A stretch of DNA of 34,642 nt from Anaerolineae bacterium (GTDB lineage Bacteria; Chloroflexota; Anaerolineae; SpSt-600). Position 1 is the first letter of the stretch; the number at the start of each line of letters is the position of its first letter. The translations under genes were made by a program, and so were the position numbers. Of this stretch, positions 2,114 to 30,117 are shown piece after piece. Location of the stretch: positions 1 through 34,642 of the forward strand of contig JAPWUT010000001.1 of assembly GCA_028275425.1 (NCBI GenBank). The letters are read 5' to 3'. The notes below the pieces were generated by a model. That model did not search any database. It saw only the letters and a program-made list of their open reading frames with translations, and was not told the origin of the DNA.

Positions 2114-3235
2114 ATGTACATCCGGCGTTACAGGAAACGCCGTTCCTCAAGATGGTGGATATTCCTCCTGGTCATCCTGGCCTTAGGAGCCTTCTATTTC
2201 TCAAGCAAAAAGCCGGCAATTTCCCTGATTCCGAGGTTCGGCCCTACCCCGACCCCTACCCCCTCGGCTCAGCAGTTCATCCAAGAGGGGGAGAAGGCCT
2301 GGAGCGAAGGGCGGCTGAAGGAAGCCTTCTCCCAATACTCAAAAGCCCTGAACCTTGAACCCGATAACTTCCAGGCCCTCTTGCGCCGCTCCCAAATCTT
2401 GGTTTTTCTGGGGCGAGCTAAGGAGGCCGTGGAAGATGCCAAGCGTGCCCTTGCCCTCAAGCCCGATTCCCCTGAAGCCATAGCTGGCCTCTGCCTGGCC
2501 TTGAACTGGGCAGGGCAGATTGACGAAGCTTTTGAAACCTGCGTAAAAGGGGTAAGCCTTTACCCCCAGAACCCAATCCTGCGAGCTTACCTGGCCGAAA
2601 CCTACATTGATAAGTCCAACTGGGACAGAGCCAATGAGGAGATAAACGCCGCCCTCTCCCTTGCCCCCGATGACCCCGAAGTCTTGAGGGTTTACGGCTA
2701 CATCCTGGAGAAGCAGGGGAAGTACCGTCAGGCCCTTGAAGCCTACCTCAAAGCCCAGGAACTGACCCCCCACCTGTATCACCTTTACATTCGGGTGGGG
2801 AACCTTTACATAATCCTCAAAAAGTGGGATGAAGCTTTGGCCCAGTTCAACAAGGCTGTGGAAATAGCTCCGGATTTGCCTATGCCTTACGATGCCTTGG
2901 GCTGGGGATACTACCAGCTAAAGGACCTGGACAGGGCCGAAGTGGAGCTAAAGAAAGCCATAGAGATAGACCCCGATTACGGTCCCGCATACGGCCACCT
3001 CGGGGTTGTTTACTACGTCCAGCGCAAGTATGAGGACGCTATACCCAATTTTGAAAGGGCGATAGAGCTTGGGGTAAAATCTGTGGAATATTACTACGAA
3101 CTTGGCCTCTCCTACGTCTTCCTCGGCTTATGCGACCAAGCGCTCCCCTGGTTGGAGAAGGCTTTGGAAATAGACCCGTATTCGGAGCCGGCCCTTTGGG
3201 GCCTTTCCCAGTGCCAGGCTCCAAAGAAAAAATGA
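2114..3235 (+). CDS. Membrane-anchored tetratricopeptide (TPR) repeat protein
   Basis: The ATG directly abuts the preceding stop. The N-terminus is basic, followed by a hydrophobic helix (RWWIFLLVILALGAFYF). Many 34-aa TPR-like units follow (..AxxxYxKALELxPDxxxA.. repeated, e.g. KALNLEPDNFQAL, RALALKPDSPEAI, KAIEIDPDYGPAY). Confidence 0.85.
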   Translation: MYIRRYRKRRSSRWWIFLLVILALGAFYFSSKKPAISLIPRFGPTPTPTPSAQQFIQEGEKAWSEGRLKEAFSQYSKALNLEPDNFQALLRRSQILVFLGRAKEAVEDAKRALALKPDSPEAIAGLCLALNWAGQIDEAFETCVKGVSLYPQNPILRAYLAETYIDKSNWDRANEEINAALSLAPDDPEVLRVYGYILEKQGKYRQALEAYLKAQELTPHLYHLYIRVGNLYIILKKWDEALAQFNKAVEIAPDLPMPYDALGWGYYQLKDLDRAEVELKKAIEIDPDYGPAYGHLGVVYYVQRKYEDAIPNFERAIELGVKSVEYYYELGLSYVFLGLCDQALPWLEKALEIDPYSEPALWGLSQCQAPKKK

Positions 3236-4044
3236 AGCTCTACTTCCCCGATAAGCCTGTCCCCCCTGATTCTCCAGCCTATGTAGAGCGCCCTGCCGAC
3301 ATCAAAGCCCGCCATTTGGTCCTCCAAGGCACCCCTGTTTACTTATCAGGTCCTCCGCTGACCGGCAAGACCTCCCTCCTCTTCCGCCTCGGATACCTGC
3401 TTTTAGCCCAAGGCCTTTCCTTCTTTTACCTCAAACTGACCCCAGAACTTGCCCCGAGCGATTTAGAAGCCTTCTTGGAAGATTGCCTCCGAGCTAAGGG
3501 CAATAGCCTAATCGCTATTGATGGCCTTGGGGAAAACGCCGAGGCCTATTTAGATGTACTCAAGCGCTGGCTTTACCGCCACTCCGGCTCTTTTTTAGTG
3601 GTAGCCGAGACTTTCCATCCCTACCCTGGTGAGGTTGCGCCTTTAGTTGAGATATCCCTCAGCTTCTTCTACAAGCCGCACATATTGCAACTGGTAAACC
3701 TCTTAGGCTTAGGCCAGGAAACTGCGGAGGAACTTTACCGCTGGAGCGGGGGCTATCCTTACATTGCCCACAACCTATGTGCAGCTTTAGCCGAGGGCAA
3801 AGAGCTAAAGGAGGCAGTAGAAAACTTCAAGCGGGAAGACCGAAAACTTTTACCACTCCTGAAAGAAGCCCTTTTAAACGTTCCGGAGGCCTCTGAGCTT
3901 TACCGGCGAATCCTGCAAGGCGAGCAAATTCTCCATCGCCGGATTACCCACCTCTTCCGGGAAGCTCCTTCCCTGCGTGGCCTATTCAGGAGCGATGAGA
4001 AGGGCTACGTGCGCCTTTCCTCCCCCATCCTGAGCTCCCTCTAA
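3232..4044 (+). CDS. Small P-loop (AAA-like) ATPase domain protein
   Basis: The track ORF starts at 3130 inside the TPR gene. ATG 3232 overlaps the TPR stop (ATGA, 3232-3235), which suggests coupling. Walker-A-like GPPLTGKTS is present, and a hydrophobic strand ending in D (LIAIDGLG) is Walker-B-like. Confidence 0.6.
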   Translation: MKLYFPDKPVPPDSPAYVERPADIKARHLVLQGTPVYLSGPPLTGKTSLLFRLGYLLLAQGLSFFYLKLTPELAPSDLEAFLEDCLRAKGNSLIAIDGLGENAEAYLDVLKRWLYRHSGSFLVVAETFHPYPGEVAPLVEISLSFFYKPHILQLVNLLGLGQETAEELYRWSGGYPYIAHNLCAALAEGKELKEAVENFKREDRKLLPLLKEALLNVPEASELYRRILQGEQILHRRITHLFREAPSLRGLFRSDEKGYVRLSSPILSSL

Positions 4045-4150
4045 TCCGGGTACATCCCACCAGAGGGCAAGCAGCCCACCGCTGCTAACCCGCCCACGAA
4101 GGTAGGAAGGGGGGTCCAGGGGGCGTGCCTTTTCTGACCTAACCCCCTGA

Positions 4151-4175
4151 CCCCCTTCCCTGCGAGGGAAGGGGG
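4151..4175. repeat. Perfect 11-bp-stem hairpin CCCCCTTCCCT-GCG-AGGGAAGGGGG (element A), copy 1
   Basis: Read directly from the sequence. The same hairpin with similar flanks recurs inverted at 6467-6491. Here it lies about 110 nt after the ATPase stop and before the repeat array. Confidence 0.8.
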
Positions 4176-4213
4176 AAAATTTGGCGGGGTTCTCCGGAGA
4201 GGTTAACCCCCAA

Positions 4214-5008
4214 AACGTTGGCAAACCCTAAGCCAACGGGGGTGGGCCAAACGGGGGTGGAGGGGGCAGAGCCCCCTCCCAGGGGGCTTGGGGGGTGTCC
4301 CCCCACGAAACCAAAAGAGGGGGCGAGTAGCCCACATTAGCAACCCCGCCACGAGTGGGACCCAGAACGCTGGCGAACCCTCAGCCTACGGGGGTGGGCA
4401 ATGGGGGGTCCAGGGGGGCGGAGCCCCCATGGCGGGGGGCTTGGGGGGTGTCCCCCCACAAATTCAAAAGAGGGAACGAGTCGCCCGCATTAGCAACCCC
4501 GCCCACGAGTGGGACCCAAAACCCTGGCAAACCCTCAGCCCACGGGGTTGGGCAAATGAGGGTCCAGGGGGCGCAAGCCCCATGGCGGGGGGCCGTGGGG
4601 GGTGTCTCCCCACAAAACCAAAATTAGGGGCGAGTTGTCCGCATTAGCAACCCCGCCCACGAGTGGGACCCAAAACCCTGGCAAACCCTCAGCCCACGGG
4701 GGTGGGTAAATGGGGGTCCAGGGGGGGCGAAGCCCCCCTGGCGGGGGCGTGGGGGGTGTCCCCCCACAAAACCAAAAGAGGGGGCGAGTAGCCCGCATTA
4801 GCAACCACGCTACGAGTGGGGCCAAAAACGCTGGCGAACCCTCAGCCCACGGGGGTGGGTAAATGGGGGTCCAGGGGGCGCAAGCCCCCTGGCAGGGGGC
4901 GTGGGGGGTGTCCCCCCACAAACTAAAGGGAGCGAGTAGCCAACCCCGGCAACCCGCCCACGAGTGGGGCCAAAAACGCCGGCGAATCCTAAGCCAACGA
5001 GGGTGGGC
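4214..5008 (+). repeat. Tandem array (about 5 units) of a structured ~153-154-bp repeat (element B)
   Basis: The marker ATTAGCAACC recurs at 4336, 4489, 4643 and 4797, giving a period of 153/154/154. Each unit carries hairpin CCAGGGGGC-GCAA-GCCCCCTGG (perfect at 4871-4892) and hairpin GGGGGG-TGT-CCCCCC. The array starts and ends with the variant ..CCTAAGCCAACG(G/A)GGGTGGG. It fills the space between two convergent genes. Confidence 0.9.
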
Positions 5009-5016
5009 AAAAGAAG

Positions 5017-6108
5017 TTAATCCCCCTCCGAAAAATCCCCGATGGACACGAAAAAACGTGGGGTTACCTCTGGAACAAGCTCCTGGATTCTGGCTGCTAT
5101 GACTTCAAATTCCTCAAGGTGATATTCCTCTACCCGGCCTTCATCGCAAAGCTTGGCTATCTCCGGGTCAATCGGTATCTTAGCCAAGAGGGGAACTTTT
5201 AACTCCTTGGCTATCTCTTCGCCCTTGCTTGGCCCAAATAGCTCCCACCGCATTCCAGTATCGGGGCATATGGCATAACTCATGTTCTCCACAACCCCGA
5301 TTATAGGCACCTGGAGATGCTTAGCCATCTGCATCGCCTTCTTCACTATCACCCGAACCAACTCCTGAGGTGATGTAACTAAGATTACCCCGTTGAGCGG
5401 CAAGGCTTGCATCACAGTTAAAGAAGCATCGGCGGTGCCGGGGGGAAGGTCCACAACCATGTAATCCAGTTCTCCCCAGAAGACATCGCCCCAGAACTGC
5501 TGGATAGCTCTGGAGATGAGGGGGCCTCTCCAGATTACTGCATCTTCCTCCCTAAGCAGGAAAAGGCCAATGGACATAACCTTTATCCCAGTGGAGCTGG
5601 TCGGTGGTATTATCCCCATGGGAGCGGGGATTGGCTTATCCTTTACCCCTAAGATTTTGGGTATGCTTGGGCCGGTGATATCGGCATCCATTATCCCCAC
5701 CCGATAGTTCTGACGACGCAGGTGAGTAGCCAGAAGCGCTGCTACGAGGGATTTCCCAACCCCCCCTTTCCCGCTCATCACCGCTATCACCTTCCCTATG
5801 CTATTGAACCTCTTAGCTACACCTTCCTCCGGCGTGAGCGAGTCCAAGAGGGCCTTCTTCTCCTCCGGGCTCATTTCGGTCAGGATTACTTCTACTTCCC
5901 TAACGCCTTCTACTTGCTCCAAGGCTTCTTTTACATCATTGGCCAACCTTTCCCGCAAGGGGCAAGCCAAGGTGGTGAGGGCCAGGGTTACTTTCACCTT
6001 TCCTTCTTCCTCCTCAAGCCCTCTAACCATCTTCAACTCCACGATACTCTTCCCCAATTCGGGGTCATACACCTTTTGCAGAGCTTCCCAAAGTGGTTCC
6101 TTGCCCAT
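5017..6108 (-). CDS. mrp: Mrp/NBP35 (ApbC) family Fe-S cluster carrier ATPase with N-terminal DUF59/MIP18-like domain
   Basis: Deviant Walker A MSGKGGVGKS and the typical ..VVDLPPGTGD-like DLPPGTAD are present. The N-terminus VYDPELGKSIVELKMV is DUF59-like. The start was moved to ATG 6108 (MGKEPLWE..), which is preceded by AGGGGGAG; the track start at 6150 has no RBS. Confidence 0.9.
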   Translation of the reverse strand: MGKEPLWEALQKVYDPELGKSIVELKMVRGLEEEEGKVKVTLALTTLACPLRERLANDVKEALEQVEGVREVEVILTEMSPEEKKALLDSLTPEEGVAKRFNSIGKVIAVMSGKGGVGKSLVAALLATHLRRQNYRVGIMDADITGPSIPKILGVKDKPIPAPMGIIPPTSSTGIKVMSIGLFLLREEDAVIWRGPLISRAIQQFWGDVFWGELDYMVVDLPPGTADASLTVMQALPLNGVILVTSPQELVRVIVKKAMQMAKHLQVPIIGVVENMSYAICPDTGMRWELFGPSKGEEIAKELKVPLLAKIPIDPEIAKLCDEGRVEEYHLEEFEVIAARIQELVPEVTPRFFVSIGDFSEGD

Positions 6109-6140
6109 ATAGCTCCCCCTTTTCAAGGTTCTTTGCCCAT

Positions 6141-6169
6141 AGTGTACCACGGCAAGCAGCTCCCGTCAA
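6141..6169 (-). promoter_or_regulatory. Putative sigma70 promoter of mrp
   Basis: The minus strand reads TTGACG, a 17-nt spacer, then TACACT, about 30 nt upstream of ATG 6108. Confidence 0.45.
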
Positions 6170-6238
6170 ACCACAGCGTTTCGGTGATATGTTCAGCCTC
6201 TCTGGCTAAAGGCCCAAACCCCGAAATATTTCCCTTTT

Positions 6239-6423
6239 CCCACCCTCGTAGGCTTTGGGTTCGCCAGCGTGGTTGGGTCCCACTCAGGGCGGGGTTGCTA
6301 ATGTGGGCAGCTCGCCCCCTTTTTAAGGTTTCGTGGGGGGACATACCCAACGCCCCCCACCATGGGGCTTCGCTCCTTGGACCCCCTTTGCCACCCTCGT
6401 GGGCTGAGGGTTTGCCAGCGTTT
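6239..6423 (-). repeat. Single copy of repeat element B in inverted orientation
   Basis: The reverse complement aligns to the 4214-5008 units (..ACGCTGGCGAACCCAAAGCCTACGAGGGTGGG.. ..CATTAGCAACCCCGCCCTGAGTGGGACCCAACC..). The two hairpin segments are more degenerate than in the array. Confidence 0.8.
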
Positions 6424-6466
6424 TGTCTTTCTCCGAGGCAGAGAGAGGAAGGCCTCATCAATTTTT

Positions 6467-6491
6467 CCCCCTTCCCTGCGAGGGAAGGGGG
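6467..6491. repeat. Element A hairpin CCCCCTTCCCT-GCG-AGGGAAGGGGG, copy 2 (flanks inverted relative to copy 1)
   Basis: The hairpin is identical to copy 1. The flanks GGTCAAGGGGGTTAGGTC are the reverse complement of GACCTAACCCCCTGACC at 4137-4153. Confidence 0.8.
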
Positions 6492-6618
6492 GTCAAGGGG
6501 GTTAGGTCGGAGGGGCACATCCCCAACCGCTACGCCCGTACTCGGCGGAGGCCAACTACAGGCCAAGGGTCCAAAGAGGCTGACTATGGAATGCCATTGC
6601 GAGGGCACAAAGCGCCCG

Positions 6619-6650
6619 AAGCAATCTCCTCGCAGGCTGGGAGATTGCTT
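6619..6650 (-). terminator. 11-bp perfect hairpin 32 nt downstream of the era stop; possible terminator or RNA-stability element (no U-tract)
   Basis: AAGCAATCTCC, a 10-nt loop, then GGAGATTGCTT. No T-run follows on the minus strand, so it is not a canonical intrinsic terminator. Confidence 0.3.
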
Positions 6651-6681
6651 GGTCGTTTACGGCCCAAGCGAGAGGGGAAGC

Positions 6682-7587
6682 TTATACCTTAGGGGCAATG
6701 TAGCCTAAGCGGCGCAGTTCTTCCTCGTCCTTCCGCCAGCGCTTCCTAACTTTTACCCATAGCTCAAGGTAGACCTTGCGCCCAAGGATTAATTCCAATT
6801 CCCTGCGGGCAGCTTGGCCTATCTTCTTGAGCATGGCCCCATCTTTGCCGATAACTATTGCCTTCTGGGATTCTTTCTCCACAAAAATCGTCGCGCTTAT
6901 GTAGGAAAGGTCCTCCGAGCGATCCTTGAATTCATCTATCACTACCGCCACGGAGTGAGGAACTTCTTGGTGCAGGAAATGAAGGGCCTTTTCCCGGATG
7001 AGTTCAGCAGCAATAAAGCGTTCATCTACATCGGTTATCTGGTCCTCAGGGTAGTAGCGGGGGCCAGGAGGAAGGTAAGAGATGATGATGTCCCTGAGTT
7101 TGTCCAGATTGTCACCGGTAGTGGCGGAGATTAAAATCCAGTCCTTAAATTCCCCAAGGGCAAGGTAAGCCTCGGTGTGGGGCTTGACCTTGTCCGGGGT
7201 CAGAAGGTCCATCTTGTTCATGGCCAGGATTACCGGGCTTTTGCACCGCTCCTTTAGGGTCTGGGCTATGAGGCGGTCTTCATCATCCGGTAACTGCGAT
7301 ACATCCACCAGGAAGACTACTACGTCCGCATCCACTATTGCGGATATTGCGGTTTTGACCATGTACTCGCCAAGCTTGTGGAGGGGGTTGTGGATGCCTG
7401 GGGTGTCAACGAAGATTATCTGGGCGTTGGGTAGGGTTAAAATTCCCCGAATTTTGTGGCGGGTTGTCTGAGGCTTGGGCGATACTATGGCCACTTTCTG
7501 CCCCAGGTAGGCGTTCATAAGGGTTGATTTTCCCACATTCGGCTTGCCTATTATGGAGACAAAGCCCGAGCGATGCTCCATGCTCAT
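6682..7587 (-). CDS. era: GTPase Era
   Basis: G1 GKPNVGKST, G3 DTPG and G4 NKMD are present, with a C-terminal KH-like domain (..GKDGAMLKKIG..). The start ATG overlaps the yhhQ stop (ATGA). Confidence 0.93.
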   Translation of the reverse strand: MSMEHRSGFVSIIGKPNVGKSTLMNAYLGQKVAIVSPKPQTTRHKIRGILTLPNAQIIFVDTPGIHNPLHKLGEYMVKTAISAIVDADVVVFLVDVSQLPDDEDRLIAQTLKERCKSPVILAMNKMDLLTPDKVKPHTEAYLALGEFKDWILISATTGDNLDKLRDIIISYLPPGPRYYPEDQITDVDERFIAAELIREKALHFLHQEVPHSVAVVIDEFKDRSEDLSYISATIFVEKESQKAIVIGKDGAMLKKIGQAARRELELILGRKVYLELWVKVRKRWRKDEEELRRLGYIAPKV

Positions 7588-18846: not shown

Positions 18847-19884
18847 ATGCCCTTCGATTTGCCACAGAAAACTGTTGGTTACTTTTGCTCTTACGTGCCC
18901 GAGGAATTGCTCATCGCTGCGGGGTTTAACCCCATCCGCATAATCCCCGGCGCAACCGATGCTTCGCTATCCCAAACCCACCTTCAGAGCTACACTTGTT
19001 ACCTTGCCAGAGCTTGCCTCCACCGGGCCATCAAAGGGGAGCTAAACTCCTTGGAAGGGGTGATTTTCACCCACACTTGCGATACAATGCAATGCCTTGC
19101 CGACATATGGCCCCAAGCTTGCCCCCACAAGATAGTGGAAACCTTCAATTTGCCCACCGTCCTGAGCTCGGAGGAAGCTCTCCCTTACACCATGGCCGAA
19201 CTGGAAAGGCTGAAAAGTCGCTTGGAAGCCTCAACAGGCCTCCTCATCGGGGAGGAAGCCCTGAGAGAGGCCGTAAAGATTGCCAACAGGAAGCGTATCC
19301 TCCTGCAAAACCTGGCCTCAAGGCGGGAGAAAATGCCGGCCTCCCGCTTCTTCAGCCTGGTAAACAAAGCCCTCACCTTGCCTTTAGGAGAGGCCATAAG
19401 TTTCCTGGAGAATTTGGAGGTTGAGGAAGAAGAGAACCCCGGCAAAGTCCGGATAGTGCTGGCCGGCTCAACCCTTGATGACCTCAGTTTGGTTGACTTC
19501 ATAGAAGAAAGCGGGGGCAAAATAGTGGATGATGACTTCTGCAACGGCACTCGTTACTTCCAGACCCTCGCCGATGAGTCCATCCCACCCATTGAGGCCA
19601 TAGCCAGACGTCTCCTTGAAAGGCCAATTTGCCCCTGCAAATTCCTCAAGCCTGGTGCTTACTCCCAAAGCTTGCTGGAGAAAACTCGTAAGGCCAAAGC
19701 CCAAGGATTAATCTTGGTACGCCAGAAATTCTGCGACCCTTGGGGCTGGGAATTCCCGCTCATGCAGTCCCTCTTCCAAGAGAAAAAGGTTCCAATCCTC
19801 ATGGTAGAAGTAGAACAACCCGGAAGCCTTGGCCCCATCGCCACCAGGATACAGGCTTTCTTGGAGATGATAGCGGAGGGATAA
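18847..19884 (+). CDS. 2-hydroxyacyl-CoA dehydratase / BcrC-BadD-HgdB family protein (single subunit, no activase nearby)
   Basis: The N-terminus ..VGYFCSYVPEELLIAAGFNPIRI.. and the conserved Cys positions (FTHTCDTMQC) are typical of this family. Confidence 0.7.
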   Translation: MPFDLPQKTVGYFCSYVPEELLIAAGFNPIRIIPGATDASLSQTHLQSYTCYLARACLHRAIKGELNSLEGVIFTHTCDTMQCLADIWPQACPHKIVETFNLPTVLSSEEALPYTMAELERLKSRLEASTGLLIGEEALREAVKIANRKRILLQNLASRREKMPASRFFSLVNKALTLPLGEAISFLENLEVEEEENPGKVRIVLAGSTLDDLSLVDFIEESGGKIVDDDFCNGTRYFQTLADESIPPIEAIARRLLERPICPCKFLKPGAYSQSLLEKTRKAKAQGLILVRQKFCDPWGWEFPLMQSLFQEKKVPILMVEVEQPGSLGPIATRIQAFLEMIAEG

Positions 19885-19886
19885 AA

Positions 19887-21701
19887 ATGCCCGGAGGATA
19901 TTTAGGCAAAATACTCGTGGTAGACCTCACCCAAGGGCAATGGGAAGTAGAGCCGTTGAGGGAGGAACATGCCTCCCGATTCTTAGGAGGTGGGGGACTT
20001 GCCTGCCGTTACCTCTATGACCTCATCTCCCCCTCCACCGACCCCTTGGGCCCCGATAACATCCTCTTCTTCACCACCGGACCATTGGTGGGGACGAGGG
20101 CTCCTTCCTGTGGCCGCTACACCGCTTGCTTCCTTTCCCCGCTTACAGGAATATGGGGTGAAAGCAATGCTGGCGGATTCTTCGGCCCGGAGATGCGCTT
20201 CGCCGGCTATGATGGAATCCTAATCCGCGGCCGTTCACCCGAACCAGTTTACCTCTGGATTAACGATGGGAAAGTGGAAGTGAGGCCTGCTTCCCACCTC
20301 TGGGGATTGGACACATATAGGGTTCAAGAAGCCATAAAAGAAGAAATCGGGGAGCCAAGAGCCAAGATAGCTTGCATCGGCCCGGCCGGGGAAAAACTGG
20401 TGAAAATGGCCGCCATAATCAACGATAACGCCAGAGCAGCGGCCCGTGGCGGTCCAGGGGCAGTCATGGGCTCAAAGAACCTGAAAGCCATCGCCGTAAA
20501 GGGCTCGGGAACCATCCCCCTCCACAACGAGGCAGCTTTTAACGAAGTAGCCAGGGAAGCCAGGGATTGGGTCCGAGAAGACTTCACCGCCCAACTCTTC
20601 CACTCTGGGGGCACGGCCTTCTGGATGGACCTGGGCCACGAGTTCGGCGATGTCCCGATAAAATACTTCACCAAAGGCTATTTTGAAGGGACCGGCAAAC
20701 TCAGCGGGGCCACCATGGCCGAAACCATCCTGGTCAAGACCAGCGCCTGCTACGGCTGCCCCATCGCTTGTGGTCGGGTCATTGAAGTGAAAGAAGGCCA
20801 ATACAAGCTCCCGGTCACAGAAGGCCCCGAATACGAAACCCTCTGCTCACTCGGAACCCTATTGATGGTTGACAACTTGGCCGCCGTATCCTATGCCAAC
20901 CACCTCTGCAACTCCCTCGGGCTTGACACAATTTCCGTTGGTGTAACCATAGCCTTTGCCTATTACCTTTTTGACCGTGGGGTCGTAAGCGAAAGGGAAG
21001 TGGGCTTTGCCCTCAAGTGGGGTGACCCGGAGGGGGCGATCAGGCTTATAGAGCTCATCTCTCGGAAAGAAGGCTTTGGGGCAATCCTGGCCGAAGGGGT
21101 AAGGTCGGTTGGGGAGCGCTTTGGGCTTCCTGAAGAAGCGGCTCACGTTAAGGGGCTGGAAGTCCCGATGCACGAACCGCGGGCTTTCTTCGGGAGTGCC
21201 CTGGCCTACGCCACATCGCCTCGTGGGGCCTGCCACATGCAGGGTGACCCCTACGCTGTGGACTCTGGGAGCGCCATCCCTGAAATCGGGATAATTCCTG
21301 GGGACCGCTTCAGCGCGGAGGATAAGGCTTGGATGGTAGCTCGCATCCAGGACTGGCGTGCCCTCTACAACTCCATGATAATGTGCCAATTCTGCAGCCC
21401 CGGTCCGGAAAGGATTGCCAAGCTCCTGAGGGAAGCCACAGGGTGGGATATAGGAATTGAGGAGCTTGTAAAGATAGGCAGGGACATCTTTGACCTCAAG
21501 CGGGCATTCAATGTGAAGATGGGGGTAAAACGCCAGGACGATCACCTCCCCTCTTTGCTCCTCCGTCCTCTTCCCGATGGAGGGGCTCAAGGGGCCGTTC
21601 CCGACATGGAAAAACTCCTTGCGGATTACTATGCAGTCCGGGATTGGACCGAAGAAGGCACCCTCAAGCCCGAAAGGATGCGTGAACTGGGGCTGGCTTA
21701 A
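19887..21701 (+). CDS. aor: Aldehyde:ferredoxin oxidoreductase family (tungstopterin) enzyme
   Basis: Start ATG 19887 (MPGGYLGKILVVDLTQG..) lies 2 nt after the upstream stop and has RBS GGAGGG; the track start at 19740 lies inside the previous gene. AOR N-domain, EYETL, 4Fe-4S ligand block ACYGCPIACGR and a later ..GACHMQGD.. are present. Confidence 0.9.
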   Translation: MPGGYLGKILVVDLTQGQWEVEPLREEHASRFLGGGGLACRYLYDLISPSTDPLGPDNILFFTTGPLVGTRAPSCGRYTACFLSPLTGIWGESNAGGFFGPEMRFAGYDGILIRGRSPEPVYLWINDGKVEVRPASHLWGLDTYRVQEAIKEEIGEPRAKIACIGPAGEKLVKMAAIINDNARAAARGGPGAVMGSKNLKAIAVKGSGTIPLHNEAAFNEVAREARDWVREDFTAQLFHSGGTAFWMDLGHEFGDVPIKYFTKGYFEGTGKLSGATMAETILVKTSACYGCPIACGRVIEVKEGQYKLPVTEGPEYETLCSLGTLLMVDNLAAVSYANHLCNSLGLDTISVGVTIAFAYYLFDRGVVSEREVGFALKWGDPEGAIRLIELISRKEGFGAILAEGVRSVGERFGLPEEAAHVKGLEVPMHEPRAFFGSALAYATSPRGACHMQGDPYAVDSGSAIPEIGIIPGDRFSAEDKAWMVARIQDWRALYNSMIMCQFCSPGPERIAKLLREATGWDIGIEELVKIGRDIFDLKRAFNVKMGVKRQDDHLPSLLLRPLPDGGAQGAVPDMEKLLADYYAVRDWTEEGTLKPERMRELGLA

Positions 21702-21749
21702 GGCCAATCTCCGCTCGGGAGAGAGACCAGGGGAGAGATTAACCCCCAG

Positions 21750-21934
21750 AACGCTGGCGGACCCTAAGCCCACGGGGGTGGGCAAATGGGGGGTCCAGGG
21801 GGCGCAAGCCCCCTGGCAGGGGGTGTGGGGGATGTGCCCCCAAAACAAAAAGAGGGGGCGAGCCGCCCGCATTATCAACCCCGCCACGAGTGGGGCCCCA
21901 AAACGCTGGCGGACCCTAAGCCAACGAGGGTGGG
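21750..21934 (+). repeat. Single copy of repeat element B plus a terminal partial unit
   Basis: AACGCTGGCGGACCCTAAGCCCACGGGGGTGGGCAAATGGGGGGTCCAGGGGGCGCAAGCCCCCTGGCAGGGGG.. has a perfect GCAA hairpin at 21795-21816. It ends with AACGCTGGCGGACCCTAAGCCAACGAGGGTGGG, as the 4214-5008 array does. It begins about 50 nt after the aor stop. Confidence 0.85.
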
Positions 21935-22027: not shown

Positions 22028-22056
22028 TTGCCAGAAGAAAAAAGCTGTGCTAAAAT
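22028..22056 (+). promoter_or_regulatory. Putative sigma70 promoter (extended -10) of the zinc-ribbon gene
   Basis: TTGCCA, a 17-nt spacer (ending in the TGc of the extended -10), then TAAAAT, about 30 nt upstream of ATG 22087. Confidence 0.5.
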
Positions 22057-22086: not shown

Positions 22087-22320
22087 ATGCCGATATACGA
22101 ATACAGGTGTGGGAATTGCGGCAAGACCTTTGAAATTTTGCGGCCTATAAGCAAAGCCGATGAACCCGCCAGTTGCCCTTACTGCGGTAGCACTGAAACC
22201 GAAAAAGCCATTTCCCTCTTTGCAGCCGTAAGCCGTGGTGAGGGTGGCACAACAAGAACCCTGGGAGGTAACCCTTGCTCAGGGTGCACTGCCACTACAT
22301 GCACAACATGCTCCCGCTAA
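22087..22320 (+). CDS. FmdB-family zinc-ribbon protein
   Basis: MPIYEYRCGNCGKTFEIL..ASCPYCGS.. is the family-defining N-terminus (CxxC..CxxC). The tail is Cys/Gly/Thr-rich. Confidence 0.85.
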   Translation: MPIYEYRCGNCGKTFEILRPISKADEPASCPYCGSTETEKAISLFAAVSRGEGGTTRTLGGNPCSGCTATTCTTCSR

Positions 22321-22355: not shown

Positions 22356-22388
22356 AATCCGGTAGTCACTCCTTTAAGTAATGGATGA

Positions 22389-23954
22389 GTGGTTATGCTA
22401 ACTTTACAATGCCAACTGCGCTTTGAGTGCCAAAAGGACCAAGAAGCAGTTTTTCAGCTCATGCACCGCTTCTCCTCCGCTATGCGCTTCGCTTTCCAGC
22501 GCTTCCTTGAGGGAAAGGAGGAGAACGAAGTCCTAAAGGAGCTTTCTTCGCTCTTCAACCTCAACTCCCGCTACGCCTACGGCGCATTGGTAAAGGCTAA
22601 GATGACCATTGCCTCCCAGAAGGAGCTTGGCCAGAGCCCGAAGAAGGTGGTCTTCGGAGGGAGAAAGCTCTTTGAGGAGCTTGCCAGAAAGCACCTTTCC
22701 GGGAAGCGAAGGGATGAGCTTCTCAAGAAGTGGAGGGAGAGAAGGCAAGGCTTGCTTTTCGCCGTGGGCCAGAAGCACGCAAAAGGCAACAAGAACCTGA
22801 GGCTGGTCTGGGTTGATGGCCACCTTTTCCTTCGCATCAACGTTGGGGAAAGGGAATGGGTTTATGCCAAGGTAATCCGAAAAGTGAAACGGGATAGGGA
22901 TAAGTGGAAGGTGCTTTTAGGACGCCTAATGAGGGCGGAAGCTACAGGGGATTGGTTCCCCTACACTGTCACCTTGCGCCGGAAGGAAGGCAAGCTCTAT
23001 GCCTTCATCTCCTTTGAGGAGGAGCTACCTCCGGTTTCAATCACCAAAGCTCAAGGAGTAATAGGGCTTGACCTCAATGCCGTTCCGCAGCATGTGGCCT
23101 GGGCGGAAGCTTCCTCGGATGGGAACTTGGTCTCCCATGGGGCCGTGCCCATCCCCGACCTTTCTGGGAAGCCCAAGAAAGTGCGAGATTACATTCTCTG
23201 GCTTACGGCCTGGCAGGTAGTTCGCCTGGCCAAGGAGAAAAGGAAGGCCATTGCTTTGGAGCGCCTTAAGCGTATGCCTAAAGGAGAGCGTGGGGATGGG
23301 AAGCCAGCCCTTAGGCGTAAGCTTGGAAATTGGGCCTACCGGAGCCTGAGGGAAAAGATTAAGGTTCTGGCCTTGCGGGAAGGGATTGAAGTTGTGGAAG
23401 TGAGCCCGGCTTACACTTCGGTCATAGGGGCATTGAAGTATGCTCCGCAGCACCTACTGGACAAGGACCGGGCAGCGGCTTTGGTGATTGCCAGGCGTGC
23501 CCTGGGGTTTGAAGAGAAGATGCCCAAGCATTACGAACGCTTATTAGGTGACGGAGAATTCCTTGGCTACGCTGTTTCCTATTGGGAAGAGAAGGTTGAA
23601 GAGCTGAGGGCGAGGAAGAGGGAAGAGAGGAACAAGTGGAAGAGGAATGCGGTTCGGGGGAGTTTGGAGAAAGCTAAAAAGTCCCTCCAGCTTCTTAGGG
23701 AAAGTGTGGGTGGCGAGCCGGCTTCCCAAGAGACGGCCAACCGATGGAAGGAGCCGGTGAGGGGCGGGCCTTTGGGCCCGCAAAAAGCTTGGCAAGTCGC
23801 CTATGTAGCCCTCACTGAGCCTCTCCTTGGGAGGTCTCTTAGGGACCTCTCTCCCCTGAGGCCGGTTTTAGTCTTGGGGGATTGGGAGAGGCCGGCGAGA
23901 AGGTTAGCTCCTGACCTGGTCCAGGGGCGGGATTATCAACACTATAGGGGATGA
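22389..23954 (+). CDS. tnpB: TnpB-like (IS200/IS605 OrfB / Cas12-type) RuvC nuclease lacking the zinc-ribbon; solitary, no tnpA
   Basis: RuvC-I VIGLDLN, RuvC-II AIALERL followed by the typical ..LGNWAYRSLREKIKVLALREGIEVVEVSPAYTS.., and RuvC-III DKDRAAALVIARRALG. The only two Cys in the protein are at residues 8 and 14, so no CxxC..CxxC exists between YTS and RuvC-III. About 150 aa of poorly protein-like tail follows. An alternative ATG start lies at 22395. Confidence 0.7.
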   Translation: MVMLTLQCQLRFECQKDQEAVFQLMHRFSSAMRFAFQRFLEGKEENEVLKELSSLFNLNSRYAYGALVKAKMTIASQKELGQSPKKVVFGGRKLFEELARKHLSGKRRDELLKKWRERRQGLLFAVGQKHAKGNKNLRLVWVDGHLFLRINVGEREWVYAKVIRKVKRDRDKWKVLLGRLMRAEATGDWFPYTVTLRRKEGKLYAFISFEEELPPVSITKAQGVIGLDLNAVPQHVAWAEASSDGNLVSHGAVPIPDLSGKPKKVRDYILWLTAWQVVRLAKEKRKAIALERLKRMPKGERGDGKPALRRKLGNWAYRSLREKIKVLALREGIEVVEVSPAYTSVIGALKYAPQHLLDKDRAAALVIARRALGFEEKMPKHYERLLGDGEFLGYAVSYWEEKVEELRARKREERNKWKRNAVRGSLEKAKKSLQLLRESVGGEPASQETANRWKEPVRGGPLGPQKAWQVAYVALTEPLLGRSLRDLSPLRPVLVLGDWERPARRLAPDLVQGRDYQHYRG

Positions 23955-23985
23955 CCAGGTTTAATCCTCAAGGAGGAGGAAAACA

Positions 23986-28471: not shown

Positions 28472-28669
28472 AGTCCACCTCTGGAAGACTCCGCTTACTT
28501 TTTAAGTTTACCTCAGAGCTTACGAAGTGCGCAAATGCTAATAATTCGCCGGTATGTTCGTTCCCTCTTCTCGCTCACGTGGGTGGTCTTAAGCGATTTC
28601 CTATCCCAGTTGGGCTGGGGGTTAAGTCGCAAGGGGGTACGGATTTTGCCTTGTGAGCTAAAAATTAAA

Positions 28670-28741
28670 TTCGGGGGCCAGGATTCGAACCTGGACCGAG
28701 GGATCCAAAGTCCCTTGTCCTGCCCATTAGACGACCCCCGA
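28670..28741 (-). tRNA. tRNA-Gln (anticodon UUG), CCA not encoded
   Basis: The minus strand reads TCGGGGG TC GTCTAATGGGCAGGAC A AGGGA-CTTTGGA-TCCCT .. CCAGG-TTCGAAT-CCTGG CCCCCGA A. It has a 7-bp acceptor stem with U1-A72 (typical of bacterial tRNA-Gln), a GGTTCGAATCC T-arm and anticodon loop CU-UUG-GA. Confidence 0.9.
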
Positions 28742-28751
28742 ATGCACTTTT

Positions 28752-28780
28752 ATTATAGCATCAATCGGCGAAGGAAGCAA
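28752..28780 (-). promoter_or_regulatory. Putative promoter of tRNA-Gln
   Basis: The minus strand reads TTGCTT, a 17-nt spacer, then TATAAT. The -10 ends about 10 nt before the mature tRNA 5' end. Confidence 0.5.
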
Positions 28781-28852
28781 GAGCTTAGAGCACTTGCGCC
28801 ACTTTCCCCCCTCGTTGGGGGGGGCAGGCTTATGAGCTATGCACCTCGGAAA

Positions 28853-28881
28853 TTGACGGGATGGGTTTGGCATGATAAAAT
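28853..28881 (+). promoter_or_regulatory. Putative promoter (extended -10) of upp
   Basis: TTGACG, a 17-nt spacer (ending in the TGa of the extended -10), then TAAAAT, about 25 nt upstream of ATG 28907. Confidence 0.5.
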
Positions 28882-28906
28882 GGAAAAAATCTTAAGGAGG
28901 GGAAAA

Positions 28907-29560
28907 ATGGGTCAGGTTTATGTCTCCAATCATCCGCTGGTCCAGCACAAGCTGACCATATTGAGGGACATAAACACTGAGCCGAAGCGCTTCCGGGAGC
29001 TTCTTAGGGAAATAACTTGGCTCCTCCTCTATGAAGCCACCAGGGACCTCGCAGTGGAAGAGAAGCAAGTGACCACCCCCTTAGGGACAGCGGTTGGGGT
29101 CCAGCTTACCGAAGATATAGCCTTCTGCCCCATCTTGAGGGCCGGCCTCGGCATGATAGAGCCGGCTTTGGAATTAATCCCAGGAGCTCAGGTCTGGCAC
29201 ATAGGGATTTATCGGGACCACAAGACCCTCAAGCCCATTGAGTATTACACAAGCCTTCCGAAGAAAGCCACTGCCCAGGTGGCCATAATCCTGGACCCGA
29301 TGTTAGCCACAGGGGGGTCGGCTGTGATGGCCGGCACTCTCCTCAAGGGCATTGGGGTCCCGAGGATAAAATTTGTGGGGATAATAGCGGCTCCGGAAGG
29401 GTTAGAAAAGCTTCGCAATTCCCATCCGGACATAGACGTCTTTGTGGCGGCGGTGGACAAATACCTCACCCCCGAACCTCAGAAGCCGGGGGACCCGCCG
29501 GCCGGGTACATCGTTCCAGGCCTTGGTGATGCCGGAGACCGCCAGTTCGGCACAAGCTAA
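28907..29560 (+). CDS. upp: Uracil phosphoribosyltransferase
   Basis: MGQVYVSNHPLVQHKLTILRD.., the PRPP loop ILDPMLATGGSA, and C-terminal GLGDAGDRQFGT. The start ATG has RBS AAGGAGGGG. The track ORF start at 28535 runs across the tRNA and is rejected. Confidence 0.92.
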   Translation: MGQVYVSNHPLVQHKLTILRDINTEPKRFRELLREITWLLLYEATRDLAVEEKQVTTPLGTAVGVQLTEDIAFCPILRAGLGMIEPALELIPGAQVWHIGIYRDHKTLKPIEYYTSLPKKATAQVAIILDPMLATGGSAVMAGTLLKGIGVPRIKFVGIIAAPEGLEKLRNSHPDIDVFVAAVDKYLTPEPQKPGDPPAGYIVPGLGDAGDRQFGTS

Positions 29561-29667: not shown

Positions 29668-30117
29668 TTGCCATGCTACTGCCTTGGGTTCTTGGCCTTG
29701 GCCTTCGCTCCACCGCGTAAGCCCATATCCACCCCCATAATATGGCCTTCTCCTATCCCTACCTTCACCCCTACCTCCACCTCCAGCCCTACCCCCACTT
29801 TTACCCTAATCCCAACCCCTACTCAGCGGCCTCCCTTCCCTACCTTTACCCCTACGAAAACTGCTACCCCAACCTTTACCCCAACTCAGACTTTCACCCC
29901 CACTCCTACCGAAACCATCACCCCAACCCTTACACCCACTCCAACCGGAACTTTTACCCCCACCCCTACCGAGACCTTCACCCCTACGCCTACCGAGACG
30001 TTAACCCCTACTCCTACTGAAACCTTCACGCCTACCCCTACCGAGACTTTTACCCCGGCCCCTCCAGAAACCCTTACCCCCTCTCCTACCGCAACTTCTA
30101 CCGGGCTCAAGCCATAA
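29668..30117 (+). CDS. Pro/Thr-rich repeat protein with N-terminal hydrophobic anchor (start uncertain)
   Basis: A hydrophobic N-terminus is followed by about 120 aa of PT-rich sequence ending in 8-aa repeats TPTPTETF/L. The repeat codons vary synonymously, which argues for selection at the protein level. The frame is open from 29569. Confidence 0.5.
29896..30090 (+). repeat. 24-bp (8-codon) tandem repeats encoding TPTPTETx
   Basis: ACCCCCACCCCTACCGAGACCTTC / ACCCCTACGCCTACCGAGACGTTA / ACCCCTACTCCTACTGAAACCTTC / ACGCCTACCCCTACCGAGACTTTT ... Confidence 0.8.

Follow-up and report, generated by a model that had tools for sequence, protein, structure and literature searches.

A hairpin-rich, modular 153-nt repeat family of Anaerolineae, probably one of the bacterial intergenic mosaic elements

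Introduction

What kind of element is a 153-nt, hairpin-rich sequence that stands five times in tandem in the genome of an Anaerolineae bacterium and recurs singly beside other genes? The question is raised by a 34,642-nt stretch of DNA (GenBank assembly GCA_028275425.1, contig JAPWUT010000001.1, positions 1 to 34,642 of the forward strand; hereafter the window). An initial annotation had read this repeat either as a structured 3'-untranslated region (3'-UTR) or small RNA module, or as an element like the repetitive extragenic palindromes (REPs) and the bacterial interspersed mosaic elements (BIMEs), mobilised for example by a REP-associated tyrosine transposase (RAYT). We found that the repeat is present at many loci, is modular and polar, turns over in copy number and sequence, is missing from orthologous sites, covaries in its second hairpin (H2) and has no coding capacity. 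With moderate confidence, we regard it as a lineage-specific family of interspersed repeats of Anaerolineae (Chloroflexota), non-coding, modular and rich in hairpins, an intergenic mosaic element comparable to BIMEs, the intergenic mosaic elements of Neisseria (NIMEs) and pneumococcal BOX. The family was previously unnamed; the kind of bacterial mosaic repeat is already familiar.

Results

A tandem array and two single copies in the window

The tandem array was placed at 4209-5011 by Tandem Repeats Finder, with a period of 154, 5.3 copies, 85% matches and a score of 1040. A 33-nt boundary motif, here called R33 (AACGCTGGCGAACCCTCAGCCCACGGGGGTGGG), was found ten times in the window, with six occurrences in the array (4214, 4366, 4520, 4674, 4827 and 4975, + strand), two at 21750-21934 (21750 and 21902, + strand) and two at 6239-6422 (6390-6422 and 6239-6271, - strand). 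A degenerate form of the pattern likewise gave 10 matches in the window, compared to 0.00 expected from 100 shuffles. Every window locus consisted of n full units plus one extra R33. The array itself comprised five head-to-tail units on the + strand over 4214..4974 (4214-4365, 4366-4519, 4520-4673, 4674-4826 and 4827-4974), recognised with nhmmer E-values of 1e-38 to 1e-43 and covariance-model scores of 142-167 bits. The initial description of about five tandem units with a period of 153-154, one inverted copy and one copy at 21750-21934 was borne out by these positions. It was noted that the unit lengths (152, 154, 154, 153 and 148 nt) are not multiples of three, and the array therefore holds no conserved reading frame; a protein-coding tandem repeat was excluded on these lengths. 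An open reading frame (ORF) called inside the array of a sister strain had no NCBIfam match, in agreement with the earlier view that no convincing protein is encoded.

The array (array A) lies between two convergent genes, one at 3130-4044 (+, weak AAA_35 match) and one at 5017-6150 (-) for an Mrp/NUBPL-type P-loop ATPase. It is closed by a terminal R33 at 4975..5007 (+, AACGCCGGCGAATCCTAAGCCAACGAGGGTGGG), and the convergent Mrp gene has its stop codon about 10 nt away. The sequence TTAATCCCCC that follows is Mrp coding sequence and stop codon, and was assigned to Mrp rather than to the element because it is also found in a related species without an array at this place. The second locus (copy B) occupies the spacer between Era (6682-7587, -) and the Mrp gene, with a single full unit at 6272..6422 (-; nhmmer E = 2e-39; covariance model 113 bits) in the same direction as both genes. 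Its terminal R33 at 6239..6271 (-) stands about 70 nt before a promoter-like Mrp site. The third locus (copy C, 21750..21934, +) lies between the gene for aldehyde:ferredoxin oxidoreductase (AOR; 19740-21701, +) and a Zn-ribbon gene (22087-22320, +), and comprises a full unit (21750-21901) and a terminal R33 (21902-21934), supported by R33, nhmmer and covariance-model matches.

Modular and polar organization

Each unit runs in the order R33, which forms hairpin H1, then H2, H3, a small hairpin H4 and a motif H5. H1 is a 13-bp bulged hairpin (ACCCTCA-GCCCAC-GGGG-GTGGGT-AAA-TGGGGGT), the stems of H2 and H3 measure 9 and 8 bp, H4 reads GGGC-GAGTA-GCCC and H5 reads CCCA-CGAG-TGGG. In unit 5 (+), these features fall at 4838-4870 (H1), 4871-4892 (H2), 4901-4919 (H3), 4930-4942 (H4) and 4957-4968 (H5). 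Direct reading gave CCAGGGGGC-GCAA-GCCCCCTGG for H2 at 4871-4892 and GTGGGGGG-TGT-CCCCCCAC for H3 at 4901-4919, and a variant hairpin of the GGA...TCC type at 4259-4279 (GGAGGGGGC-AGA-GCCCCCTCC); the two adjacent GC-rich hairpins per unit and this variant had been described correctly. A special role of the GGA/TCC variant in the first unit was rejected, as it was equally common in first, internal and last units. The motif CCCAC-N(2-4)-GTGGG occurs twice per unit and often bounds arrays. The unit has approximately 67% G+C and a purine-rich strand (A 22%, T 10%), and its G-rich strand carries one canonical G-quadruplex (G4) motif, GGGGGTGGG-N5-GGGGG-N4-GGGGG (window 4238-4878 and 21774); six of the seven + strand motifs of that type in the window lie inside the repeat.

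The array is preceded by a head module A at 4136..4191 (+), in which GACCTAACCCCCTGA is followed by a perfect 11-bp hairpin, CCCCCTTCCCT-GCG-AGGGAAGGGGG (4151-4175), and then by AAAATTTGGCGGGGTT; more than 90 BLAST matches to it were obtained in the collected loci. A linker at 4192..4213 (+, ..GGAGAGGTTAACCCCCAAAAC) joins head and first unit, and the junction GGAGAGGTTAACCCC(A)AAAC recurs 5' of first units across many loci. Further 5' of the head, at 4076..4135 (+), a rearranged unit remnant was read from the sequence as a unit-tail-like stretch GCTAACCCGCCCACGA and then GGGGGGTCCAGGGGGCGTG, and BLAST coverage by other copies climbs across it. The Era-Mrp copy has its linker, head A and unit in the same order and orientation as at 4136-4213: within 6423..6525 (-), the linker covers 6423-6458, the A hairpin 6466-6491, GACCTAACCCCCTTGA 6492-6507 and an H3-type remnant GGGGATGTGCCCC 6511-6523. 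The annotated positions of this perfect hairpin were exact at 4151-4175 (+) and one base off at the second site, given as 6467-6491. Immediately after the AOR stop codon, copy C retains only a linker remnant (21705..21749, +, ..CCGCTCGGGAGAGAGACCAGGGGAGAGATTAACCCCCAG), its hairpin A being lost.

Across the collected loci, the module A form GACCTAACCCCCTGA-[hairpin]-AAAATTTGGCGG was represented by 89 distinct copies. A unit array on the same strand followed 79 of them, most commonly at a distance of 43-45 nt, a partial unit on the same strand lay directly 5' of 31, and one A module only was found in the opposite orientation. The hairpin A loop was GCG in 75 copies and the flipped CGC in 10, and the flip was also seen between near-identical sister strains (L003:11096-11120 and L004:11094-11118), which indicates small inversions within the palindrome, a behaviour typical of a DNA palindrome.

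The 5' head stood in fixed orientation at about a third of loci (~20/68), the internal unit was iterated 1 to about 8 times, and all units ran head-to-tail in all arrays. No fixed 3' module was found across the 68 loci with both junctions present, and array ends were variable: R33 closed the last unit at 17 loci, H2 at 19 and H3 at 15, and 17 ended elsewhere. An ending of "n + 0.2 units" is hence one of several types. The proposal that the same 33-nt variant stands at both the beginning and the end of arrays holds for the ends of all three window loci; family-wide, about a quarter of the 68 end after R33. The element is composite, modular and polar, with an optional head (A plus a linker of about 44 nt), head-to-tail 153-nt units and a variable end.

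The Mrp gene was seen to be bracketed by inverted composites, 4136-5007 (+) and 6239-6507 (-), in the order head A, units, Mrp, unit, head A; in sister strain L001 the head was absent on one side of Mrp. This layout recalls a composite transposon or an invertible segment, and may be a coincidence given the density of the family.

Distribution among Anaerolineae genomes and metagenomes

The wider sample comprised 146 related loci. Exact-pattern R33 scans were run on GTDB genomes, JGI metagenomes and viral contigs. At least 20 matches were obtained in GTDB genomes; those listed all fell in five "Anaerolineae bacterium" genome bins, many of them at contig ends. At least 120 stretches were obtained from JGI metagenomes, of the hot-spring type. 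The pattern had no match in IMG/VR viral contigs, and blastn in distant mode found no match to the repeat in a plasmid collection. A hidden Markov model built from seven window units and searched against 147 sources (1.1 Mb) yielded 731 nhmmer matches, 410 near-full units and 254 clusters, which were collapsed by flank similarity into 107 de-duplicated loci. Its spread across Anaerolineae sources marks the repeat as a high-copy interspersed family of a bacterial class and not as a local curiosity. The repeat family and the short modules surrounding it make up approximately 3-4% of the window, and a few per cent of these genomes. The Era protein was identically encoded on 13 metagenome contigs, one of 1.35 Mb, and a look-up of the Zn-ribbon protein for further copy C alleles returned nothing on record.

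At the gathering score, the only Rfam 15 match in the window was a tRNA (28670-28741). Below threshold (E <= 10), the best matches in 4000-6700 reached 14-25 bits, compared to gathering scores of 34-99. These searches agree with the initial annotation, which had recognised no named family. No description of the repeat family was found in the literature on REPs, MITEs (miniature inverted-repeat transposable elements) or tandem repeats of Anaerolineae and Chloroflexi.

Turnover between strains and species

We found that the AAA_35-Mrp array comprised 3 units in L072, 4 in L078, 5 in the window and 7 in L001, while the flanks remained 96-99% identical. At the AOR locus, the flanks of the window and of sister strain L115 were 98-100% identical and the unit differed in clustered patches; these patches match variants of other copies, which argues for gene conversion. 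By alignment, the window AOR locus carries a 41-nt deletion between TCCGC microhomologies, and L115 keeps the 3' arm of hairpin A.

Four forms of the Era-Mrp copy were encountered in sister strains. The first is a full unit with a head, the second a different, internally deleted unit without a head, and the third a chimera broken by an insertion sequence (IS) bearing tnpB, with the junctions ...GGTTGA|CAACTG...GAACGGTTGA|GGGCGC...; in the fourth, 1.7 kb with two genes stand in place of everything up to R33. In bin H70_729, gene order is kept, and identity to the window proteins is 94% for Vut1, 93% for Era and 88% for Mrp. The Era-Mrp gap there measures 12 nt and holds no repeat, compared to about 530 nt in the window, and an array lies instead immediately upstream of Vut1. 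A second pair of filled and empty sites (L021 and L047) had spacers of 380 and 24 nt. No target-site duplication was found in either filled/empty comparison. The sequence GTTAAYCCCCC at both ends of array A was considered as a candidate duplication and rejected, since its 3' copy is Mrp C-terminal coding sequence plus stop codon and since it also occurs in the array-free species L008.

Several further observations were made on the Era-Mrp spacer, which looks like a patchwork of repeats. An IS200/IS605-type element with tnpB (NF040570, E = 8e-74) lies inside the Era-Mrp unit at L004:11161-12096 and L078:5071-6592 (equivalent to window ~6272-6340), with the junctions ...GGCAAGGGTTGA|CAACTGTTGG...GCAGAACGGTTGA|GGGCGCTCCCC. 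It sits 3' of a TTGA-type motif in the unit, and repeat sequence adjoins its right end. In L002 (10907-12603) and L005, the modules from the Era stop codon to the unit give way to a 1.7-kb segment whose right-hand junction falls at R33. This segment encodes a 339-aa protein without a known family and a 147-aa aspartic protease of clan AA (TIGR03698, below cutoff). Other short modules, unrelated to the 153-nt unit, were noted near window ~6530-6680 (-), just 3' of Era. The hairpin GCAATCTCC-N10-GGAGATTGC followed by ...CTCGCAATGGCATTCC gave approximately 10-19 BLAST matches in the collected loci, GTCAGCCTCTTTG...GGCC(T/C)TCGCC(G/A)AGTACGGGCGTAGCG is found repeatedly as an alternative flank on the 5' side of arrays, and GGCCTTTAGCCAGAGAGGCT (window ~6190-6215) recurs elsewhere too. 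The spacers around the elements are mosaics.

Constraint on the hairpins

Folding of single units as RNA gave z-scores of -2.5 to -3.1 on the G-rich (+) strand in three of the four units tested and -0.9 for the Era-Mrp copy, with -1.7 to -1.9 on the opposite (-) strand. Eight units served to build a covariance model of six helices, and 54 copies, taken from the window and from five further species, were aligned with it. This alignment and a census of hairpin arms were used because an RNAalifold consensus told nothing when made on a plain MAFFT alignment, in which indels in the hairpins were misaligned. Across the 54 copies, 83.3% of cells paired, compared to 77.0 +/- 0.5% in shuffles and at most 63% with the partners slid, and two-sided changes were found at 24 pairs against 12.9 +/- 2.0 in shuffles. 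H2 was 92.6% paired with two-sided changes in eight of nine pairs, its outer pairs alternating between GC (29) and CG (12) and between CG (28) and GC (8), and two basal H3 pairs also covaried. The inner part of H1 and H5, which contain the CCCAC..GTGGG motifs, were conserved in sequence and hardly covaried.

A census of 398 distinct units, made without a model, gave the same picture for the base of the H2 stem, where CCA/TGG (226), GGA/TCC (52) and GCA/TGC (7) were recorded and hybrid combinations were found at most twice each. The H2 loops were mainly C-GAA-G (105), C-GGA-G (43), C-GCAA-G (41) and C-GCA-G (29). C-GNA-G triloops are very stable in DNA hairpins. An H2 variant with an internal G-A mismatch was kept in about 100 units. 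Mismatches of the G-U type exceeded those of the A-C type (88 vs 58), a weak excess from an alignment fitted to an RNA model. The argument first made from one variant, that compensatory changes preserve the H2 stem, was extended by two-sided changes across copies and species. These changes show that complementarity between the arms has to be kept; they do not show that RNA is the molecule that folds.

Orientation of neighbouring genes and promoter-like sites

Genes were called by a codon-usage score trained on long ORFs, which recovered the window genes. Among 56 de-duplicated loci with both flanking genes known, 22 lay sense and 10 antisense between co-directional genes, 17 between divergent genes and 7 between convergent genes; the baseline of all 760 spacers comprised 619 co-directional, 68 divergent and 73 convergent cases. 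Counted over every side that was informative, the 5' gene was co-oriented at 36 de-duplicated loci and opposed at 35, showing no bias. The initial annotation had the element always in sense orientation downstream of a gene. This is true of all three window loci (the AAA_35-like, Era and AOR genes), which are too few to establish an orientation rule, and it does not extend to the family; at the 17 loci between divergent genes, no upstream gene reads into the copies.

A regularity was found on the other side of the arrays. In a count that needs no gene calls, an exact TATAAT within 150 nt beyond the array 3' end was present in sense at 20 of 93 loci and in antisense at one of 93, against a background of 2.5%, and on the 5' side the box pointed outward at 15 of 78 loci and inward at two. 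Where the array 3' end faced a stop codon, it usually abutted it at 8-21 nt. In the window, a promoter-like site for Mrp (TTGACG-17-TACACT, 6169-6141, -) follows copy B, and another for the Zn-ribbon gene (TTGCCA-17-TAAAAT, 22028-22056, +) lies approximately 95 nt downstream of copy C. Arrays fill the space up to outward promoters, with the 3' end preferentially facing a gene start.

No sigma-70-like site that could serve as the element's own promoter was found in unit, head or linker. An intrinsic terminator as general function was rejected: weak sites on the C-rich strand numbered 7 against 4.9 +/- 2.5 in shuffles, and A-runs, instead of U-runs, stand behind the hairpins on the G-rich strand. 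The genes enriched beside arrays belonged to ordinary families only, namely histidine kinases, ABC ATPases, TPR/NACHT proteins and glycosyltransferases.

Search for a mobilising system

In REP/BIME systems, a RAYT (Y1/HUH) gene of the same genome is typically flanked by the repeats. The transposase search suggested by the RAYT proposal was carried out by phmmer on 8363 ORFs of at least 60 aa in the 1.1 Mb of repeat-bearing loci, and no match to a Y1/HUH transposase was obtained at E <= 1, with IS200 and IS608 TnpA sequences as the queries. REPs are imperfect palindromes of 20-40 bp with a terminal GTAG or CGTC tetranucleotide (PMC3733652). The flanks of the palindromes examined were GGGT/CAGG for H2 (4871-4892), GGGC/AAAC for H3 (4901-4919) and CTGA/AAAA for hairpin A (4151-4175), so that no such tag stands at a palindrome foot; the sole GTAG lies in the H4 loop (GAGTAGCC).

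An association of the repeat with TnpB is not claimed, because the ends of TnpB genes join the repeat in no consistent way. A divergent TnpB-like ORF of 521 aa was observed in the window at 22389-23954 (+), within 22379-23971. It had sub-threshold NCBIfam matches to guided_TnpB and tspaseT_teng_N, and its only Pfam match, Cas12f1-like_TNB (E = 0.005), was below the family threshold. At least three further genomic contexts (L109, L097 and L122) carry the gene at 83-87% nucleotide identity, and shared DNA extends only about 10-30 nt past the ORF, which indicates a very compact multi-copy gene.

Other features of the window

Two repetitive regions were noted towards the end of the window. Repeats in tandem, ACC/CCC-rich and of Thr/Pro type if coding, occupy 29752-30102 with periods of 18, 24, 36 and 48 nt. 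Downstream, within 30652-34642, a long open frame with a recurring GTGGTCACCTGGAC motif runs off the window, and the opposite-strand ORFs there have no Pfam match. The stretches 29750-30102 and 30652-34642 probably encode a large repetitive surface protein. The 5' extension of an ORF at 28535-29560 (+) contains the tRNA at 28670-28741 (-; Rfam 64 bits); the UPRTase domain of this ORF starts at residue 130, and the true start is therefore probably downstream of the tRNA.

Discussion

Between the two options first proposed, the broad one of a REP/BIME-like repeated element is favoured: each genome has many loci, copies break contigs, copy number is polymorphic, gene conversion is seen and some orthologous sites are empty. 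In an intergenic mosaic element of this kind, unequal recombination or replication slippage between head-to-tail units would change copy number, and gene conversion would homogenise the units. New loci may be seeded by composite insertion through a trans-acting activity, or by recombination at the CCCAC-N(2-4)-GTGGG motifs. Most of the GC hairpins have C-GNA-G or C-GNRA-G loops; the hairpins would form in single-stranded DNA (ssDNA) and/or in RNA, which would keep their arms complementary. Selection would mainly set where the element can stay, that is, after stop codons and just upstream of outward promoters. At about half of the loci, read-through from upstream would produce a purine-rich transcript with three strong stem-loops per unit; such a transcript would probably serve as a barrier at the 3' end or damp read-through, as a side effect and not as the family's reason to exist.

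Several points weigh against this account. A mobilising enzyme, a target-site duplication and a clean insertion boundary were all not found, so mobility is argued solely from presence or absence of copies and from copy number. The orientation counts involving genes used home-made calls (codon-scored ORFs) and no validated gene finder. Further, the gene on the 3' side was co-oriented with the array at 66 loci and opposed at 23 (p = 6e-6), and the outward TATAAT boxes lie 15-97 nt past the array end; a -35 hexamer can often be recognised with them. This promoter-facing polarity hints at a polarity-dependent constraint or function beyond what a purely selfish model predicts. Finally, the H2 covariation and the 22:10 sense bias in co-directional pairs would equally be expected of a transcribed functional element.

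Because promoter-facing polarity is not predicted for a mosaic repeat, the main rival is a cis element acting at the DNA level, which we consider possible but rather unlikely. Here the array, its CCCAC-N(2-4)-GTGGG motifs or its G4-prone G-runs would bind a protein (a nucleoid-associated protein, a recombinase or a regulator) or adopt non-B DNA, and so insulate or modulate the adjacent outward promoter according to orientation. Such a role would fit the biased 3' gene beside an unbiased 5' gene, the excess of divergent spacers (17/56 vs 68/760 overall), the spacing of the outward boxes, the G4 motif in each unit and the conservation of inner H1 and H5 without covariation, as for a protein site. 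We know of no protein that binds the repeat motifs. However, promoter proximity may only mirror insertion tolerance, the length of the array (3-7 units at one locus) shows no sign of constraint, the ends are truncated at several points, and the array is placed differently in one operon of two species.

A structured RNA module, acting as a folded transcript of the G/A-rich strand in the role of 3'-UTR stabiliser, read-through attenuator or small RNA, is unlikely, and less likely than the DNA-level function. It is consistent with the better folding of the G-rich strand than of shuffles and of the opposite strand, with covariation in H2 and at the base of H3, with loops mostly of the GNRA/GNA type, with the purine-rich strand, with the G-U excess and with the sense majority in co-directional pairs. 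Set against these are the 17 divergent and 10 antisense loci among the 56, hairpins followed by A-runs, terminators near shuffled numbers, the G-A-mismatched H2 in about 100 units and positions that are not conserved between species. The G-U excess is small and comes from an RNA-model-fitted alignment, and ssDNA would maintain complementary arms equally well. The 3'-UTR or small RNA option of the initial annotation accordingly drew no specific support, the element having no promoter or terminator of its own and variable ends.

A more far-reaching proposal, to which we give a similarly low probability, is that arrays are an active, polar, promoter-proximal DNA/RNA element with a 3' end that has to face a gene start (such as an insulator or a block to read-through that depends on orientation and is made of G4-prone, hairpin-forming units), or else the substrate of a novel hairpin-recognising mobilisation system without GTAG tag or RAYT. 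Strict REP/RAYT membership, in which a Y1/HUH enzyme recognises ssDNA hairpins, is very improbable: the hairpin modules are REP-sized (19-25 bp), C-GNA-G triloops dominate H2, IS200/IS605-family genes (TnpB) are present in these genomes and clustered REPs have been reported from Chloroflexi (Thermomicrobium roseum GTAG-23; PMC3733652), but the defining GTAG/CGTC tag is absent from the palindrome feet, all units run head-to-tail, the repeat is enriched between divergent genes contrary to REPs (PMC3733652), no Y1 ORF was seen in the 1.1 Mb of flanks with the IS200 and IS608 TnpA queries, and TnpB is not consistently joined to the repeat.

As an intergenic mosaic element, the family would extend BIME/NIME/BOX-style repeats to uncultured Chloroflexota. 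In Anaerolineae bins, short-read assemblies break at it, as judged from the many matches at contig ends, and the spurious Gly/Pro-rich ORF calls that it causes make a masking model useful. The arrays offer highly polymorphic markers, like variable-number tandem repeats, for strain tracking in hot-spring-type metagenomes, and they mark hot spots of operon splitting (the Era-Mrp gap of 12 nt vs ~530 nt) and of landing by IS elements and foreign genes. If the promoter-facing polarity is functional, the arrays would provide a new example of repeats recruited into gene regulation.

Comparison with known repeat systems

Two classes of element were rejected on their layout. In a MITE, inverted repeats would be expected at the two ends; there was no inverted repeat between the two ends of the array, all inverted pairs being between loci, and no target-site duplication. 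A CRISPR array (clustered regularly interspaced short palindromic repeats) was likewise rejected, as the segments of about 120 nt between R33 motifs are 70-95% alike and no cas genes are present in the window; the sole CRISPR-DR match in Rfam was sub-threshold (E = 1.2).

The mycobacterial interspersed repetitive units (MIRUs) are 46-101 bp long, carry small ORFs overlapping the stop and start codons of their neighbours and have no strong hairpins. Like MIRUs, the Anaerolineae repeat is tandem and intergenic, lies inside or between co-directional genes, varies in copy number by strain and has a preferred orientation. Unlike them, its unit lengths break the reading frame and it is built of strong hairpins.

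With REPs and BIMEs, the repeat shares short GC-rich extragenic palindromes at very high copy, often clustered and with species-specific variants, and ssDNA or RNA hairpins have been proposed for both (PMC3733652). The Anaerolineae repeat differs in having no GTAG/CGTC tag and in being strictly head-to-tail, whereas the REPs of BIMEs alternate in orientation. REPs lie mainly between convergent or unidirectional ORFs and are rare between divergent ones (PMC3733652), while the present repeat is over-represented in divergent spacers (17 vs 7 convergent; baseline 68 vs 73).

The BOX element of Streptococcus pneumoniae (boxA-boxB(n)-boxC) is likewise a composite, non-coding intergenic repeat with a tandem internal module that is variable between strains; stem-loops are predicted if it is transcribed, and it can lie upstream of genes, with effects that depend on its orientation (PMC3049150). 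The build of the Anaerolineae repeat is similar, with head A, linker and unit(n), and 3 to 7 copies at one locus. It has no equivalent of boxC, its ends are variable and it lacks terminal inverted repeats like those of IS ends; its unit of 153 nt at approximately 67% G+C contrasts with a boxB of about 45 nt that is AT-rich, and the host phylum is another.

In the NIMEs of Neisseria, where dRS3 flanks RS segments, a short conserved palindromic motif alternates with longer segments, repeat number is dynamic between strains, and mobile-element insertions and recombination junctions are found (PMC1797815). The counterparts here are the tnpB-carrying IS inside a unit and the 1.7-kb gene pair joined at a unit. 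In contrast to NIMEs, the intervening segments form one family and not more than 100 RS families, the motif is unrelated to ATTCCC-N8-GGGAAT, and no phage integrase or recombinase is linked to CCCAC-N(2-4)-GTGGG. Taken together, these comparisons suggest that the Anaerolineae repeat is closest in its build to pneumococcal BOX and closest in its behaviour to neisserial NIME.

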